Shown piece by piece: positions 1,629 to 9,246 of a DNA stretch of 36,277 bases. Below the pieces are notes generated by a model. It was not told where the DNA came from and did no database searches. It saw nothing but the letters and a program-made list of their open reading frames with translations. This stretch comes from Desulfurococcales archaeon (lineage in GTDB: Archaea; Thermoproteota; Thermoprotei_A; Sulfolobales; Desulfurococcaceae): assembly GCA_015522345.1 (NCBI GenBank), contig WAML01000119.1, positions 1 to 36,277 on the forward strand, given 5' to 3'. A program made the translations under genes and the position numbers. The stretch's first letter is position 1. Each line of letters begins with the position of its first letter.

Positions 1629-2474
1629 ATGACTTTCAATACAAATAATGTGGTAGAGTATATGTCGTGTAGAAGTAAGAGATGGCTGGGTATATTAATT
1701 GTTATCGTGAGTATAGTTGTAGTTGGAGTAGTCTATACGTTATCTACGAGCAAACTAATAGTGCCGATTAATACTCCTAATAGAAATATAGTGGAACAAT
1801 ATATTAGATTCGCATACAATCCATTCAATAAATCTTCGTCTCTAGTGCCAGCAATAGTGAATAGTATTGTATGGGATTTCCGTGGACTAGATACTCTTTT
1901 TGAAACAATAGTTTTCTATACAGCAATTATAGCTTCTATAGCCATATACCATGAGTACTTGACCGAGACGTATCTCGATACTGTAGAACTATCTAAAATA
2001 CCTAAGACAGTTGCTATACTAGTCATCGGAGCTTCAATTGCTATAGGGCTCGCTGTAGCTTTTAAAGGACATTTAACTCCAGGTGGAGGTTTTCAAGGAG
2101 GAGCAGTAATAGCGGCTACATTATTTATTTTAGCAGCTACATGGTCTACGTACTACATTAGTAAATTAGGTATTTCTGTGAAACATTTAATTGTACTAAG
2201 ATCTCTTGGTCTTCTAGGAATAATCCTCCTATCCTTCTACCCACTAGTCTATTGTTTACTCAACAGCTGTTCTGCATTTATTTTCCAGAATCAATGGAAG
2301 GATAATAGTGGTTATCTAGGCTACAGATACTATATGGGAGACGATCCTGTCTCTCTCACCATAATATTCTATAACGTTTTTGAATCAATAGCTATTGCAA
2401 ACGGCTTCATTATCCTCTTGTATATACTTGTTGTCTCCGGCTATAGAGAGAAATTTGAAGAGGAGAGCTCATGA
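1629..2474 (+). CDS. Mrp/Mnh antiporter subunit B-like membrane protein (MnhB domain)
   Basis: GHLTPGGGFQGGAVIA matches the MnhB/MrpB-domain signature. Several TM helices. Lies between two MrpD-like genes. Confidence 0.75.
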   Translation: MTFNTNNVVEYMSCRSKRWLGILIVIVSIVVVGVVYTLSTSKLIVPINTPNRNIVEQYIRFAYNPFNKSSSLVPAIVNSIVWDFRGLDTLFETIVFYTAIIASIAIYHEYLTETYLDTVELSKIPKTVAILVIGASIAIGLAVAFKGHLTPGGGFQGGAVIAATLFILAATWSTYYISKLGISVKHLIVLRSLGLLGIILLSFYPLVYCLLNSCSAFIFQNQWKDNSGYLGYRYYMGDDPVSLTIIFYNVFESIAIANGFIILLYILVVSGYREKFEEESS

Positions 2475-2893
2475 ACTACGAATTTACAGTATTAAATATA
2501 CTAGTATTAGCGTTATTAGCGAATATAGTGTTTGGCGTCTATGGATTAATAGTAAAACGTAATTTAATAAAGAAGATCATTGCCCTCAATATAGCTAGCG
2601 ATAGTGTTTGTGTACTAGCTATTTATATAGGGTATAGGATGCCCCATGCTATTCCACCAGTACATGTACTGCCTTATAGTGAATCTAAAGTAGTAGAGCT
2701 AGTTAACTATAGTGTAGATCCTCTAGTCCAAGCTCTAGTATTAACAGCTATAGTTATAGGACTCGGTTTTACAGTCTACTTATCTATAATCACTATTAGG
2801 ATCTATGAATTAAGTGGTTCTCTAGACATTCACTCACTTCTACGTATGGAAATGCATACTGAAGAAATTGAAGAGGCTGAAGAAATTGATTGA
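2471..2893 (+). CDS. Mrp/Mnh antiporter subunit C (NuoK-like)
   Basis: 140 aa with three hydrophobic helices, positioned between the B- and D-like subunits. ATGA start/stop overlap with the upstream gene. Acidic tail EEIEEAEEID. Confidence 0.65.
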   Translation: MNYEFTVLNILVLALLANIVFGVYGLIVKRNLIKKIIALNIASDSVCVLAIYIGYRMPHAIPPVHVLPYSESKVVELVNYSVDPLVQALVLTAIVIGLGFTVYLSIITIRIYELSGSLDIHSLLRMEMHTEEIEEAEEID

Positions 2894-4391
2894 CTATCAA
2901 ACACTATTCTCTCTAACGCCGCTACTCCTGGTATTCAATGCAGTAATAATACCCTTAGCTAGTGTAGTATATAAAAAGAAGGTCTTGCTTGAACTAGTGT
3001 TTTCTATAGCATTAGCAGTCAACTTCCTGCTTACATCACTAGTATTTCTACGAATATCTACTGGCGCTACAATAGACTATTGTTTTGCAGGATGGAGTAA
3101 ACCACTTGGAATATGCTATAGCGTTAACGCATATAACGGATTTATTGCTTTTCTAGTATCATCTATAGCTTTAGCCATAGGCTTATACTCTATATGGTAT
3201 TCAAGGCATTTGAGAAACTATGTGTACTTCTACACACTATACTTAATCCACTTAAGTGGATTACTAGGATTCATTTACACCACAGATATCTTCAACATAT
3301 ACGTAATGATCGAAGTAGTTGGGCTTTCAGCTTACTCTCTAGTATCCCTGCATCATCATAGACTAAAGGCCCTAGTCTCATCTATACGCTATGCTTTACT
3401 AGGAGCCTTATACTCGATATTATTCCTGTTCTCTATAATACTGCTCTACAATTATGTGGGTGTACTTAGTATAGACTATATTATTTATAGAACAGCTGTT
3501 GTTGACCTAAGTATAGAGGTAGCCATTATATTCATACTAGTGACTATATGGTTTAGTTTATTCTTATCAGCTATATTCCCTAATCACTTCTGGCTACCAG
3601 ACGCTCATACGGAAGCTCCTATACCTGCATCGGCTATACTGTCTGGTTTAACAGTAATTGCAGGTTTCTACCTAGTATCTCGGATAATGCGTATAATAAT
3701 TTTGGTCGACAGCTATTATGCAGTGGGCATCAATTATATTCTAAGCAATATACTCTTAGTGTTTTCAACGATAAATGTATTCTATGGAGTAGTAATGCTA
3801 TCTATAGAAGATGATGTAAAGCGTATACTAGCATATAGTACGCTACTAAATATGGGCTATATATTCATGGGATTAAGCCTAGGAACACCACTAGGTATTG
3901 CAGCATCACTACTGCATATATTAAACCATTCTATCGGAAAAGCACTTGCTTTCTTGAGCATAGGGTATATTATTAGAAAGTATAGAACACGAAACATATA
4001 CTCACTAGAGGGTAAAGGTAGAGAAAACCCTGTAACTACGTTGTTTCTTGCAATAGCTTTACTCCACTTAATAGGTATTCCACCAACTGGCGGATTTTAT
4101 AGCAAGCTATTATTGTTTCAAGCATTTGTTGAAGTTGGTGCATACTATAGTGCTATTACAGTTGTTATAGGTACTGCACTATCTGTTTATGGCTATACTA
4201 GACTGCTTGAACACTTATGGCATCCACCAGTATATCCTACGCTAGAGTCTAAGAGAGTAGAGCATTTACCAGTAACCGTACTAGCTTCATTCACTGTACT
4301 CGCTACATCAATATTCTTAGTAAGCATATTATATCCATCAATAAACGAGTTCTTAATTAACATAGGTATTGAATTATTTGAAGCATTGTAG
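2868..4391 (+). CDS. Mrp/Mnh antiporter subunit D (NuoM/N-like proton-conducting subunit)
   Basis: FPNHFWLPDAHTEAPIPASAILSG and KRILAYSTLLNMGY motifs in a long polytopic protein. TTG start at 2868 (alternative TTG 2886) overlaps the end of the C subunit. Confidence 0.8.
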   Translation: MKRLKKLIDYQTLFSLTPLLLVFNAVIIPLASVVYKKKVLLELVFSIALAVNFLLTSLVFLRISTGATIDYCFAGWSKPLGICYSVNAYNGFIAFLVSSIALAIGLYSIWYSRHLRNYVYFYTLYLIHLSGLLGFIYTTDIFNIYVMIEVVGLSAYSLVSLHHHRLKALVSSIRYALLGALYSILFLFSIILLYNYVGVLSIDYIIYRTAVVDLSIEVAIIFILVTIWFSLFLSAIFPNHFWLPDAHTEAPIPASAILSGLTVIAGFYLVSRIMRIIILVDSYYAVGINYILSNILLVFSTINVFYGVVMLSIEDDVKRILAYSTLLNMGYIFMGLSLGTPLGIAASLLHILNHSIGKALAFLSIGYIIRKYRTRNIYSLEGKGRENPVTTLFLAIALLHLIGIPPTGGFYSKLLLFQAFVEVGAYYSAITVVIGTALSVYGYTRLLEHLWHPPVYPTLESKRVEHLPVTVLASFTVLATSIFLVSILYPSINEFLINIGIELFEAL

Positions 4392-4401
4392 GTGCAAACA
4401 T

Positions 4402-5769
4402 TTATTGTTGAACAGAGAATTCTTTCTTAATACACTTATCCTCTAGATTACTCGATAGAGTCAGTAAGTTATTGAATGCTTCATCAATTGTATCTCTGGA
4501 AACTAGTGCCAGGAGTTTCCTTAATAGTCTTTCAATATTCTTTGTTCTCCTAGCTTTCTCTATTTCTCCCCTCAATTGCTTGTATAAACCTATTTTATCT
4601 ATTACTTCATTGAACTCAGGTTTATCAATACATTCTTTAATGTATTCTGAAATCTTTTTGTATAGCAAGATAATTTGTTGTCCTTTATTCCTTATCCCAT
4701 GGTATTCTGTAAGCATATTAACTGCTTCTTCACTATATCCATAGGATGCTAGTATAAGTAGTGATTTAGGGCTTGACTGATATTTTACAGCCATTGCTTC
4801 TGGATATAGTTTTGACTTTACTTCAATAGTGTATGGTCTATAGTTATCCCTTGAATCATACCTTATGAAGACGCTTCTACTATAGAGTATTTTCTTAGCT
4901 TTTTCAATGAATTCACTTAATTCACTATAGGACTTCAACTCTATTAATTCAATAGGTACTGTCTCCCACTCAAGTATCTTCTTTGACTCAGATACTGTAA
5001 GTAGTGTACCATCGGGTTTACGTATTGTTAGCAAGTATAGTTTGAACGAACTAATATCATACAACTCTACATTCGGCTTAAGTATTGCTGGCTCTGGAGG
5101 CTCTAGAATAAAAGTTATTGTCCATTTAGGGCTGAACTTAACTATTTTATCGTATAAGCCTATTTGTTTAGCGAGTTCATAGGCTATGTATGCTCTAGGA
5201 TTTATTACTTCATTGATATCTTCTACTATAAGTTGTCTACCCAAGAACTGCATGTTATGCATTAGATACTTTGTTGCTGGAACCCACTTCTTTATAAATG
5301 GGTTATAGTAGAATGTTATCTGGTATCCATCTACTCTATGCGTTACTTCGGTAACCCTATATTCTCTTGGATCAAGTATTTTTACTCTCCTACCCTCTAT
5401 ATCGTGGCTCCTATGTATTGGATAAGCTATTGTTTCTACACTACCATCTCTCCCTATATACAGTATAGTTCCAGTAGCATCTATGCTTACGGGGAAGTAT
5501 CTTATATACATACGTGGGTTCCACGAATAAATACAGAGTTCTCCATTAGATACTTCTATACAGTTCTTTTGTATAAGTCGAGTAAACACGTCTATGTACC
5601 TTCCTTTAACAACACTAATTTTCTTAGAAGGTTCTCCCAAGAGACTGCCTATATACTTTATTTCATCTGGTGATGGTTCGTAGCCTTTTTCTACAGCATT
5701 GATAAATTCTTCAACAATACATATACTATTGCCCATGCATTTCTCAAACAATTTCTCTCCACCCAGCAT
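4402..5769 (-). CDS. Uncharacterised 455-aa protein with an Rnl3/Pab1020-type RNA-ligase-like motif pattern; motif-I lysine position is arginine
   Basis: The long ORF is clearly real. VTHRVDGYQITF (aa 142-153) fits nucleotidyltransferase motif I KxDGxN except for R145 (codon 5335-5337). FILEPPEP (motif III-like), FKLYLLTIRKPDG (IIIa-like) and IEVKSK (motif V-like KxK) follow in the right order. Only the functional call is low confidence. Confidence 0.45.
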   Translation of the reverse strand: MLGGEKLFEKCMGNSICIVEEFINAVEKGYEPSPDEIKYIGSLLGEPSKKISVVKGRYIDVFTRLIQKNCIEVSNGELCIYSWNPRMYIRYFPVSIDATGTILYIGRDGSVETIAYPIHRSHDIEGRRVKILDPREYRVTEVTHRVDGYQITFYYNPFIKKWVPATKYLMHNMQFLGRQLIVEDINEVINPRAYIAYELAKQIGLYDKIVKFSPKWTITFILEPPEPAILKPNVELYDISSFKLYLLTIRKPDGTLLTVSESKKILEWETVPIELIELKSYSELSEFIEKAKKILYSRSVFIRYDSRDNYRPYTIEVKSKLYPEAMAVKYQSSPKSLLILASYGYSEEAVNMLTEYHGIRNKGQQIILLYKKISEYIKECIDKPEFNEVIDKIGLYKQLRGEIEKARRTKNIERLLRKLLALVSRDTIDEAFNNLLTLSSNLEDKCIKKEFSVQQ

Positions 5770-5893
5770 CTTTATCTAAACACTATCTATGTTAGCTAGA
5801 TTGATAAGTAAATCTATAGAGTGTTAAATAGAGACTTGTTCTTATAGTGCTAGAGTATATTAGGCATAGTATAATATTATGTAATTATGGAGT

Positions 5894-5945
5894 GTGCTGA
5901 AAACGGCCGATGCTGAAGCATGGTGATGACCAACACCTAGGCTTA
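5894..5945 (+). ncRNA. Candidate box C/D sRNA-like module A
   Basis: GUGCUGA(5894-5900)-12 nt-CUGA(5913-5916)-6 nt-GUGAUGA(5923-5929)-12 nt-CUUA(5942-5945). Spacing is exactly that of an archaeal C/D sRNA. The outer boxes are imperfect and the inner boxes perfect. Lies in a GC-enriched island. Confidence 0.3.
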
Positions 5946-6079
5946 GATGGGATGAAGAAGCTGGCCTGTACAGATACTGTGGAAACTACTGGCTTGATGA
6001 AGAACCTTCGCTTTCCAGACCGATGGTTATTAGTAAATTTTACTGTTTCTCTAGTATACTAGGCGATTTCATCCAAAAT

Positions 6080-6129
6080 GTGAAGAAACCAACGTGGACT
6101 GAATATGTGATGAAATCGGCCTCTGCAGA
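6080..6129 (+). ncRNA. Candidate box C/D sRNA-like module B
   Basis: GUGAAGA(6080-6086)-12 nt-CUGA(6099-6102)-4 nt-GUGAUGA(6107-6113)-12 nt-CAGA(6126-6129). Same architecture as module A, again with degenerate terminal C and D boxes. Confidence 0.3.
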
Positions 6130-6149
6130 TCATGTTTAATGGTGGTTTT

Positions 6150-6872
6150 ATGGAGCTTTATATAGGTACTAGTGGTTGGAGCTATAGTTGGAACCCTAAT
6201 GGGTTTAAATGGTATGTTAGAAATTCTAGATTAAACGCTGTTGAACTCAATGCTAGCTTCTATAGAATACCTTATAAGACTATAGTGGTTTCTTGGAGTA
6301 GGCTTGGTAAAGAACTTAGGTGGTCTATTAAAGTCTATAGAGCAGTAACTCACTGGTATAAACTAAAGGCTCCTAGGTCGCTTGAAATATTTAATTATTT
6401 CAGAAGAGTTTTTGAGCCTTTGGAGAGCATTGGTGTTATAGATTTTTATTTATTTCAGTTACCACCATCGTTTCATGCATCGATTAAAAACTGGTCTAGG
6501 ATTGAAGAAATTGCTTCTAAGACAGAGCTTGGAGAGAGGATGGCTATTGAGTGGAGGCATAGGTCTTGGTTTTCTCATGAATGGCTTGACCGAGCAAAGT
6601 CTCTTGGAGTAACAATTGTCTCTGTAGATTCTCCAGAAATAATATACTATACTAGAACTAGTGAGAGTGTATACGTTAGAATGCATGGTAGAAGCTACTG
6701 GTATAGCCACTACTATACAGATGAAGAACTACTTGATGTTATAAGGAATGTATTGAGGCTTAAGCCTAAGAAGATCTATGTTTTCTTTAACAACGACCAC
6801 GCTATGCTTGAGAATGCTCGTAGGATGATGGAGTTGTTTAGAAAGTGTTTAGAAGACAATGCTTGTTTATAA
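6150..6872 (+). CDS. DUF72 (UPF0759) family protein
   Basis: N-terminal MELYIGTSGWSY, then FYR and IEWRHRSWF motifs typical of DUF72. The ORF opens at ATG 6132, but ATG 6150 follows a GGTGG SD-like motif and gives the family-typical N-terminus. Confidence 0.8.
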   Translation: MELYIGTSGWSYSWNPNGFKWYVRNSRLNAVELNASFYRIPYKTIVVSWSRLGKELRWSIKVYRAVTHWYKLKAPRSLEIFNYFRRVFEPLESIGVIDFYLFQLPPSFHASIKNWSRIEEIASKTELGERMAIEWRHRSWFSHEWLDRAKSLGVTIVSVDSPEIIYYTRTSESVYVRMHGRSYWYSHYYTDEELLDVIRNVLRLKPKKIYVFFNNDHAMLENARRMMELFRKCLEDNACL

Positions 6873-8400: not shown

Positions 8401-9246
8401 TTGGAGATTACTGTATTAGAAAAGAATCCTTTAAGAGTAAGACTTTACATAAAGGATATTCCTCTCCATGTATTGAATGCTATAAGGCGTGTATCTATTA
8501 GTGAAGTACCTACTATGGCTGTTGATTCTGTAGTATTTACTCTAAACTCTAGTGTATTTGATGACGAGATAATAGCTCATCGCCTAGGCCTCATACCATT
8601 AACTAGCGAAGAAGCTCTTGAGAAATACAAGTCTCCAGAGGAATGCAGTACTGTTGCTGAAGAAGCTATTTTTCCTGAAGAATGTTTTGTAAAACTTGAT
8701 CTAGAGGCATCTAGTCCTCTTGAATCTAATAAAAACATTATAGTTTATAGCAGAGACTTAAGGACAAGCGACCCTAGTGTAAAGCCTGTCTATGATTCAA
8801 TTCCTATATTAGTCCTTGGGCCAGGTCATGAAATACGTTTAGAAGCATATGCCCGCCTAGGTAGAGGTAAGGAACACGCTAAATGGAGTCCAGTATCTGT
8901 TGCCGCGCACAAGTATATAGCTAATATATCGATTGATTATAGCAAATGTATTGAAGGATGCAGTAGATGCGTTGAAGCATGTCCTAGAGAAGTACTTGAG
9001 CTAAAGAATGGCAGGCCTGTTGTGAGAAAGGATAAAATTATAGAGTGTACTCTTTGTAGAGCCTGTGAAAACGTTTGTCCAACAAATGCATTGAAGCTCG
9101 GTTATAGAGAGAAAGAATATATACTCACTATTGAGTCAACAGGCTCCCTTTCCCCCAGGAGAATACTTATTGAAGCTGTACGTATTCTTGATCAAAAATT
9201 GAATGATTTCTTAGATAAACTTAGGCAGAATGGTGTTATAGAATGA
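8401..9246 (+). CDS. rpoD: DNA-directed RNA polymerase subunit D (Rpo3) with ferredoxin-like domain
   Basis: Position after S11. HRLGLIPL motif. An insert carries CxxxCxxCxxxCP and CxxCxxCxxxCP motifs. Confidence 0.92.
   Translation: MEITVLEKNPLRVRLYIKDIPLHVLNAIRRVSISEVPTMAVDSVVFTLNSSVFDDEIIAHRLGLIPLTSEEALEKYKSPEECSTVAEEAIFPEECFVKLDLEASSPLESNKNIIVYSRDLRTSDPSVKPVYDSIPILVLGPGHEIRLEAYARLGRGKEHAKWSPVSVAAHKYIANISIDYSKCIEGCSRCVEACPREVLELKNGRPVVRKDKIIECTLCRACENVCPTNALKLGYREKEYILTIESTGSLSPRRILIEAVRILDQKLNDFLDKLRQNGVIE

Follow-up and report, generated by a model that had tools for sequence, protein, structure and literature searches.

Three probable box C/D guide RNA genes with paired kink-turn variants upstream of a DUF72 gene in a Staphylothermus-related archaeon

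Layout of the island

We analysed a GC-rich island on the plus strand of contig WAML01000119.1 from a Desulfurococcales archaeon, within a stretch of 36,277 nucleotides (nt) that we refer to as the window. The island lies between a divergent open reading frame (ORF) of 455 amino acids (aa) on the minus strand (4402-5769) and a DUF72 gene, and carries three modules, A (5894-5945), M (5952-6019) and B (6080-6129), in each of which boxes C, D', C' and D follow one another in this order on one strand; all six guides between the boxes are exactly 12 nt long. We propose that the island probably consists of three tandem archaeal box C/D small RNA (sRNA) genes, read on the plus strand, of a Staphylothermus-related member of the Desulfurococcaceae. 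Its G+C content is 48.6% at 5891-6030 (68/140), compared with 26.4% at 5770-5890, 28.6% at 6031-6079 and 36.6% in the window as a whole. An earlier note on this DNA, made from the letters alone, had given the same count of 68/140 and had placed modules A and B, their 12-nt spacings and their guides exactly where we find them; it described two modules only, and overlooked the third complete one, M, which begins 6 nt after the end of A.

Module A opens with box C (GUGCUGA, DNA GTGCTGA; 5894-5900), followed by the D' guide AAACGGCCGAUG (DNA AAACGGCCGATG; 5901-5912), box D' (CUGA, CTGA; 5913-5916), a D'-C' spacer of 6 nt (5917-5922), box C' (GUGAUGA, GTGATGA; 5923-5929), the D guide CCAACACCUAGG (DNA CCAACACCTAGG; 5930-5941) and box D (CUUA, CTTA; 5942-5945). 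In module M, box C (AUGAAGA, ATGAAGA; 5952-5958) leads into the D' guide AGCUGGCCUGUA (DNA AGCTGGCCTGTA; 5959-5970) and box D' (CAGA; 5971-5974), and a variable spacer of 22 nt (5975-5996) separates these from box C' (AUGAAGA, ATGAAGA; 5997-6003), the D guide ACCUUCGCUUUC (DNA ACCTTCGCTTTC; 6004-6015) and box D (CAGA; 6016-6019). Module B comprises box C (GUGAAGA, GTGAAGA; 6080-6086), the D' guide AACCAACGUGGA (DNA AACCAACGTGGA; 6087-6098), box D' (CUGA, CTGA; 6099-6102), a spacer of 4 nt (6103-6106), box C' (GUGAUGA, GTGATGA; 6107-6113), the D guide AAUCGGCCUCUG (DNA AATCGGCCTCTG; 6114-6125) and box D (CAGA; 6126-6129).

This arrangement exceeds what chance would produce. When both strands of the 36 kb were scanned for the pattern C-12-D'-spacer-C'-12-D with at most three box mismatches, the island was the sole locus found, with three overlapping matches as compared to 0.07 expected from shuffled sequence. 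A second scan, which kept the GA core of the boxes and freed the 3b/3n position (one of the pairs of the kink-turn, described below), returned only M and B in the window and nothing in 100 shuffles. As for folding, the stretches 5885-5952, 5944-6028 and 6070-6140 were no more stable than their shuffles (z from -0.1 to +0.5), values that fit guide RNAs, which are expected to fold weakly.

Some further features of the guides and spacers were seen. The D' guide of A and the D guide of B share 7 nt of mutual complementarity (GGCCGAU/AUCGGCC), and GGCC is present in three of the six guides; both could be coincidental. A palindrome, AUGC-UGAA-GCAU, spans the D' box and D'-C' spacer of A (5909-5922); it is kept in the related locus L076, and would compete with formation of the internal motif. 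Searching the literature for the guide strings yielded unrelated primers only.

Conservation among relatives

To follow the island in other genomes, we used near relatives recovered as Logan contigs (runs X4 and X7) and as loci L076-L079. L076, whose DUF72 gene is 91% identical at the DNA level, has diverged from the window by 15-18% at third codon positions of DUF72 and S13. Across 5891-6131, the boxes and guides differ from L076 at 4 of 138 positions and the spacers at 41 of 105 (~39%; Fisher p=1.6e-13), so that the conservation of boxes in related genomes, which the earlier note had named as a check on its reading, was borne out. The four box and guide differences are an A>G change at the purine (R) position of box C' of M, a C>U change at the 5' terminus of the A D guide, a change of box D of B from CAGA to CGGA, and a 3-nt deletion adjoining box C' of A; all four are, as we read them, conservative. 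The deletion falls in the D'-C' spacer and recreates AUGAUGA, again a match to RUGAUGA, with the guide still 12 nt long. Independently of L076, run X7 shows the same pattern, with 10 substitutions and one deletion in the spacers, two substitutions in the boxes (5997 A>G, where R stays R, and 6127 A>G) and none in the guides.

Within the modules, the boxes and guides of A are kept in L076, L078 and L079, and those of M show a single change in L076, the A-to-G at the R position of C', with 8 of the 22 nt of the internal spacer of M differing. This internal spacer and the spacer between M and B are the fastest-evolving stretches; the latter (6020-6079, plus strand) is AT-rich and the most diverged of all; X4, X7 and L076 each carry numerous substitutions and indels there. 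The outer boxes are conserved as well as the inner ones. Judged by this distribution of changes, boxes and guides are under purifying selection. The modular conservation, taken with the lack of any fold better than shuffled sequence, is a guide-RNA signature rather than that of one long structured RNA.

Module A is restricted to the window's own species-level lineage, and is not found in the same spacer of L074, L075, L080 and L084. A genome comparison based on DUF72 returned nearest genomes of at most 61% identity, which were GC-rich and not syntenic, and in which the spacer was not comparable.

Module B and the DUF72 gene

Module B has a wider distribution. Orthologues lie upstream of DUF72 in L074, L075, L076-L079, L080 and L084, in six distinct versions that come from lineages with DUF72 either 63-65% or at least 90% identical. 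In L074, L075, L080 and L084, where the DUF72 protein is 63-65% identical, a single module stands upstream of DUF72, and it is B; no orthologue was found in lineages with DUF72 at 58-61% identity. The versions share the order RUGAAGA, a guide of 12-13 nt with the core CNAACGUGG, CUGA, 4-8 variable nt, GUGAUGA, RAUCGGCCUCUR and C[AG]GA.

In all six versions, 5-20 nt separate the end of B from the DUF72 start, and B is followed by a Shine-Dalgarno (SD)-like GGGTG or GGTGG in all orthologues except L080, which has AAGGT. In the window, the SD-like GGTGG (6141-6145, plus strand) lies 11 nt past the terminal turn of B, and the ATG at 6150-6152 (plus strand) lies 20 nt past its D box. The conserved protein start MELYIGTSGW runs from 6150; the mechanically called start, ATG 6132, is replaced by TTG in both L076 and run X7, and the annotated proteins of close relatives have 240 aa. 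The true DUF72 start is thus probably ATG 6150. In L080, the public DUF72 gene call (2342-3085 of the ENA contig) begins within the B orthologue (2318-2367); the ORF seems to have been called too long and to hide an sRNA gene.

Guide targets

Guides were compared with seven non-cognate archaeal ribosomal RNA (rRNA) loci (L086-L092), one RNase P RNA and ~18 transfer RNAs (tRNAs). The rRNA loci were reached with a translated crenarchaeal 16S fragment, used as a probe only, which matched spurious ORFs that had been called within rRNA genes. L086-L088, the three loci with both 16S and 23S, had their rRNAs annotated by Rfam; L089-L092 have AT-rich flanks and belong to the same assembly series as L080.

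One guide, the D guide of A, has a strong match. In L089-L092, its positions N2-N12 all form Watson-Crick pairs (11/12) with the 16S sequence GCUAGGUGUUGG, directly after AAACGAUGC(G/A)G, and the same N2-N12 pairing is found in L087 with the target ACUAGGUGUUGG after AAACGAUGCAG; in L086 and L088, the homologous 16S site pairs at 10/12. The site corresponds to about 825-836 of E. coli, with a G at about 829 as the N+5 nucleotide. Shuffled versions of this guide reached 11/12 in 5 of 300 cases, and the L076 variant, with its 5' C-to-U change, retains a G.U pair. The best target evidence thus belongs to the guide that adjoins the oddest box (CUUA). If the match holds, the cognate 16S would be expected to read GCUAGGUGUUGG or CCUAGGUGUUGG after AAACGAUGCGG. 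The earlier note had suggested checking the four guides of A and B for complementarity, and this one guide answers to it at a single 16S site in five related rRNAs, but none of the other three reaches 11/12 in these non-cognate RNAs.

Two matches of module M were set aside. Its D' guide pairs at 11/12 at L089:3944, in the antisense flank of a tRNA-Leu gene, where ~0.4 such matches are expected by chance; its D guide pairs with 23S G[AU]AGGCGAAGGG (10 Watson-Crick pairs and one G.U), a level that 144 of 300 shuffles also reach. Pattern scans of metagenome contigs for the A D guide gave no matches, neither with a 23S site guessed from similarity to E. coli, a guess that was wrong, nor with the right 16S site, for which the pattern set C at a place beside box D that is G or A in the rRNAs. 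E. coli rRNA was uninformative as a proxy target set.

The rRNA loci themselves hold some observations of another kind. The crenarchaeal rRNA operons of L088 (9031-15449) and L089-L092 carry ORFs of LAGLIDADG homing endonucleases in introns of 16S and 23S, which gene callers fuse to the translated rRNA exon (P0283-P0285, P0271 and P0293-P0296), and in L088 the RNase P RNA gene lies directly 3' of 23S.

The outer boxes as kink-turn base pairs

In a box C/D kink-turn (k-turn), positions 3, 4, 5 and 6 of box C pair with positions 4, 3, 2 and 1 of box D, with the consensus pairs 1b.1n G.A, 2b.2n A.G, 3b.3n U.U and 4b.4n G-C (PMC6009581 Fig. 2; PMC7994747). Viewed as pairs, the unusual boxes of the island take on a common form: four of its six motifs, counting terminal k-turns and internal kink loops (K-loops), are off consensus, and all four deviate at mutually pairing positions. 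Both canonical K-loops, those of A and B, have U.U at 3b.3n; C/D of M, C'/D' of M and C/D of B have A.A there. In the terminal motif of A, box C (GUGCUGA) is changed at position 4 and box D (CUUA) at position 3, yielding C.U at 2b.2n; this is the exception, the other five motifs retaining both G.A pairs and the G-C pair (C6-D1). The terminal k-turn of B, A.A in the window, is A.G (CGGA) at 3b.3n in all relatives, with 6127 A>G in runs X4 and X7.

Substitutions placed at random, one per box, would hit the partner position in all four motifs with a chance of ~(1/4)^4; this is an upper-bound argument, because the halves of M, and B, may share ancestry. As for what such pairs would do, 3b.3n is known as a variable, tunable pair, at which A.G (as in Kt-7) folds best in Mg2+, U.U is the box C/D norm, and L7Ae folds all variants (PMC4382518, PMC5689011). 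A trans-Hoogsteen/sugar-edge C-U pair is isosteric with A-G and keeps the geometry of the sarcin/ricin motif, and C-G cannot form this pair (PMC8450098).

We therefore read the outer boxes as coherent paired k-turn variants and not as decay, which implies that the C.U turn would fold. The earlier note had called these boxes degenerate and seen in them the reverse of the usual conservation pattern, a view that the equal conservation of outer and inner boxes and the pairing of the deviations contradict. It was right that the outer boxes are off consensus by one substitution each, but its exception, a box D of A said to differ at two positions, does not stand: CUUA differs from CUGA by a single change (G to U). 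Off-consensus boxes are best read as k-turn base pairs instead of being scored box by box, whereupon a candidate that appeared degenerate becomes coherent. We also tried shifting the k-turn register of A, so that CUGAAAA pairs with UAGA, and rejected it: the D' guide would be left with 9 nt, and position 5947, A in the window, is G in both X4 and L076.

Setting of the locus

The chromosome segment from which the window comes carries S13, S4, S11, RpoD, aIF5B, aIF2-gamma, GluRS and Kae1, all archaeal. Its aIF5B is 84% identical to that of Desulfurococcaceae archaeon MEX13E-LK6-19 and 80-81% identical to those of Staphylothermus marinus and S. hellenicus; judged by this protein, MEX13E-LK6-19 and Staphylothermus are the closest named relatives. 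Hydrothermal-vent metagenomes contain the DNA of the window, and these two findings agree with the AT-rich hyperthermophile that the earlier note had surmised.

The DUF72 gene lies upstream of the S13/S4/S11/RpoD cluster in the window and in some relatives. The divergent 455-aa ORF has no Pfam or NCBIfam match, and the same divergent position is kept in L074 (447 aa) and in L076 and L078 (442 aa). RNA polymerase subunit D (8401-9246) contains a ferredoxin-like 4Fe-4S domain according to Pfam and NCBIfam, with matches recurring in RpoD of L074, L075, L076 and L078. Upstream of A on the plus strand, two AT-rich blocks, GAGTATATTAGG (5851-5862) and ATATTATGTAATTATG (5875-5890), are nearly unchanged between the window and L076; they are candidate archaeal TATA/initiator elements, and might serve as the promoter of a transcript covering A and M.

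Discussion

Taken together, the conservation pattern, the orthologues and the one rRNA target agree with the earlier note's core reading of box C/D sRNA-type genes, extended here to three, and we consider it likely that A, M and B are such genes. By analogy with the family, each RNA would be expressed and bind L7Ae at its terminal C/D k-turn and at its internal D'/C' K-loop, followed by Nop5 and fibrillarin, and its two 12-nt guides would direct 2'-O-methylation at the target nucleotide that pairs with guide residue five, counted upstream from box D or D'. A and M, 6 nt apart, are probably carried on one transcript as a dicistron, and B, placed in the leader of DUF72, probably shares a transcript with that gene. 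Archaeal sRNAs are known to occur in clusters of two to three genes and within 25 nt of ORFs (PMC7994747), and co-transcription of an sRNA with an ORF is a known arrangement in archaea (PMC7994747, PMC6009581). As for the circular or permuted sRNAs that the earlier note had offered as possible readings, the order in the DNA is standard and non-permuted in all three modules; circularity, which the RNAs might have, is unneeded to explain the boxes.

A number of points weigh against this reading. The RNA runs searched for the region did not contain the locus. An Rfam search of the whole window, another check that the earlier note had listed, gave no family at gathering score; the best sub-threshold alignments were generic, weak C/D matches to sR18 (17.6 bits; gathering 45), sR14 (16.9; 38), sR9 (16.7; 36) and sR17 (16.5; 36). 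No family match is expected, however, because C/D families are guide-specific. For an archaeal sRNA, the 22-nt D'-C' spacer of M is long. Apart from the D guide of A, none of the six guides, the conserved pair in B included, reaches 11/12 in the non-cognate rRNAs of L086-L092, the RNase P RNA or the ~18 tRNAs; since archaea commonly have orphan guides and tRNA targets (PMC6009581), this result neither supports nor refutes the five guides. The conservation of the odd outer boxes of A amounts to 11 unchanged nt, with a neutral probability of 0.004-0.15 depending on the rate used, over a shallow divergence only. Finally, A2b is normally essential in k-turns, C.U at 2b.2n is isosteric on paper only, and C may be unable to take over the cross-strand A-minor contact in which A2b also engages.

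Of the other explanations, one gives B the main or an additional role of controlling translation or stability of the DUF72 messenger RNA (mRNA) through L7Ae binding in its 5' leader, much like the k-turn in the l7ae leader. The position of B speaks for this: it ends 5-20 nt before the DUF72 start with an SD-like sequence after it (L080 excepted), and no room is left for a separate TATA box. In Sulfolobus, L7Ae represses translation via k-turns in the 5' untranslated region (PMC5539422), a 5'-overlapping sRNA reduces expression of the downstream gene (PMC7994747), and no rRNA match has yet emerged for the guides of B. However, both 12-nt guides of B are conserved across lineages, with the D'-C' spacer and the flanks varying, and a mere protein-binding site would not need guides; B also retains the complete double-guide architecture. 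We hold this explanation unlikely, bearing in mind that a role in the leader is compatible with guide function and not exclusive of it.

A different partition of the island, into one sRNA at 5923-5974 (GUGAUGA, CUUA, AUGAAGA, CAGA) and two orphan half-modules at 5894-5916 (GUGCUGA-12-CUGA) and 5997-6019 (AUGAAGA-12-CAGA), must also be weighed, and counts against the three-gene partition insofar as it passes the box scan with three mismatches and is the frame of the weak Rfam alignments to sR9 and sR18. It has a perfect C box, a D'-C' spacer of the typical 6 nt and 12-nt guides, and it turns the most variable stretches, 5917-5922 and 5975-5996, into spacers between genes. Against this, two half-modules of 23 nt, both fully conserved in L076, are left unexplained, and the pairing suffers: 3b.3n becomes Watson-Crick (U-A, A-U), one 2b.2n becomes A.U, and the orphan half at 5894-5916 sets C against G, where a sheared pair is impossible (PMC8450098). 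In the three-gene partition, by contrast, all deviations fall on mutually pairing positions. We therefore find the alternative partition distinctly unlikely.

Module A might instead be a decaying or non-functional copy that has kept its K-loop intact but lost its terminal k-turn through an A-to-C change in box C and a G-to-U change in box D. In favour of decay, the folding of a k-turn and its binding by L7Ae normally depend on A2b.G2n (PMC5539422, PMC4382518), and A is confined to the window's species-level lineage, being missing from the spacers of L074, L075, L080 and L084. Yet the only changes to its boxes and guides in L076 are the shifted C' and one pairing-preserving transition at a guide end, next to spacers that have diverged by ~39%; the odd D box adjoins the one guide with a strong rRNA match, and both defects hit the partners of a single pair, giving an isosteric C.U. 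In light of these points, decay of A appears improbable.

A single long structured or scaffold RNA spanning 5891-6130, with L7Ae at two K-loops, was a further proposal of the earlier note, and builds on the two perfect CUGA-N4-6-GUGAUGA units at 5913-5929 and 6099-6113. It conflicts with the AT-rich, fastest-diverging and indel-bearing stretch 6020-6079, with the occurrence of B alone in four other lineages, with conservation that is modular and confined to boxes and guides, and with the folding of the three module stretches (5885-5952, 5944-6028 and 6070-6140, each folded by itself), which is no better than that of shuffles; we judge it very improbable. A small protein gene is hardly credible: of the two mechanical ORFs that overlap the island, 5910-6062 (50 aa) and 6023-6139 (38 aa; translated only), which belie the earlier note's statement that no listed ORF covers the region, the former does keep its ATG and 47 open codons in L076, where the 3-nt deletion is in frame, but it has no coding signature, its 16 differences falling 5/4/7 by codon phase without third-position bias (DUF72, 9/11/43; S13, 1/0/22) and clustering in two short stretches with 5/9 residues changed, its C-terminus is frameshifted, 1-nt deletions lie inside it in X4 and X7, and it does not exist in the spacers of L074, L075, L080 and L084.

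Returning to the three sRNA genes, a bolder claim can be made about their turns, namely that A carries a natural and functional k-turn in which the invariant sheared A2b.G2n is replaced by an isosteric C.U, in a cluster that also uses A.A or A.G in place of U.U at 3b.3n. We put this forward as a tentative possibility, which we doubt more than we believe. If true, L7Ae-dependent assembly of sRNA ribonucleoproteins (sRNPs) in this hyperthermophile would tolerate or exploit k-turns beyond the accepted sequence rules, and the C.U k-turn would explain why covariance and box-based searches overlook such sRNAs; if L7Ae binds A at this C.U turn, the sequence rules for k-turns would have to be widened. 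As it is, sRNA finders based on consensus would miss M, with four boxes off, and A. The cluster would add three unannotated guide-RNA genes to an uncultured lineage of the Desulfurococcaceae, one of which, B, is conserved across several vent lineages and tied to DUF72.

Comparison with known systems places the island close to the archaeal box C/D sRNAs of Sulfolobus, Pyrococcus and Pyrobaculum (Rfam sR and snoPyro_CD), with which it shares the order C-guide-D'-spacer-C'-guide-D, 12-nt guides, lengths of 50-68 nt, GC-rich guides in an AT-rich genome, the lack of a stable fold, clustering of two to three genes, a site beside an ORF start (PMC7994747, PMC6009581) and one 16S match compatible with N+5. 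It departs from them in that A, M and B match no Rfam family, four of six K motifs are off consensus and the D'-C' loop of M has 22 nt. The terminal turn of B resembles Kt-7, the best folder in Mg2+ (PMC4382518), reading GA-A / G-GA with A.G at 3b.3n in all relatives, but differs in its 4b:4n pair, which is G:C as in box C/D (C:G in Kt-7), in the A.A of the window's strain, and in belonging to a guide ribonucleoprotein (RNP) and not to the ribosome. The terminal turn of A recalls the C-U replacement in sarcin/ricin motifs (PMC8450098), the Hoogsteen-edge partner of 2b.2n having changed from A to C and the sugar-edge partner from G to U, although that C-U geometry was demonstrated in sarcin/ricin motifs and not in k-turns. 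Lastly, B is placed as are the k-turns in archaeal mRNA leaders (l7ae, nop5-fibrillarin; PMC5539422, PMC6298567), its L7Ae-binding motifs being followed directly by an SD-like sequence and a start codon; unlike those, it is a complete double-guide sRNA with conserved guides, and the gene that follows it, DUF72, encodes no sRNP component.

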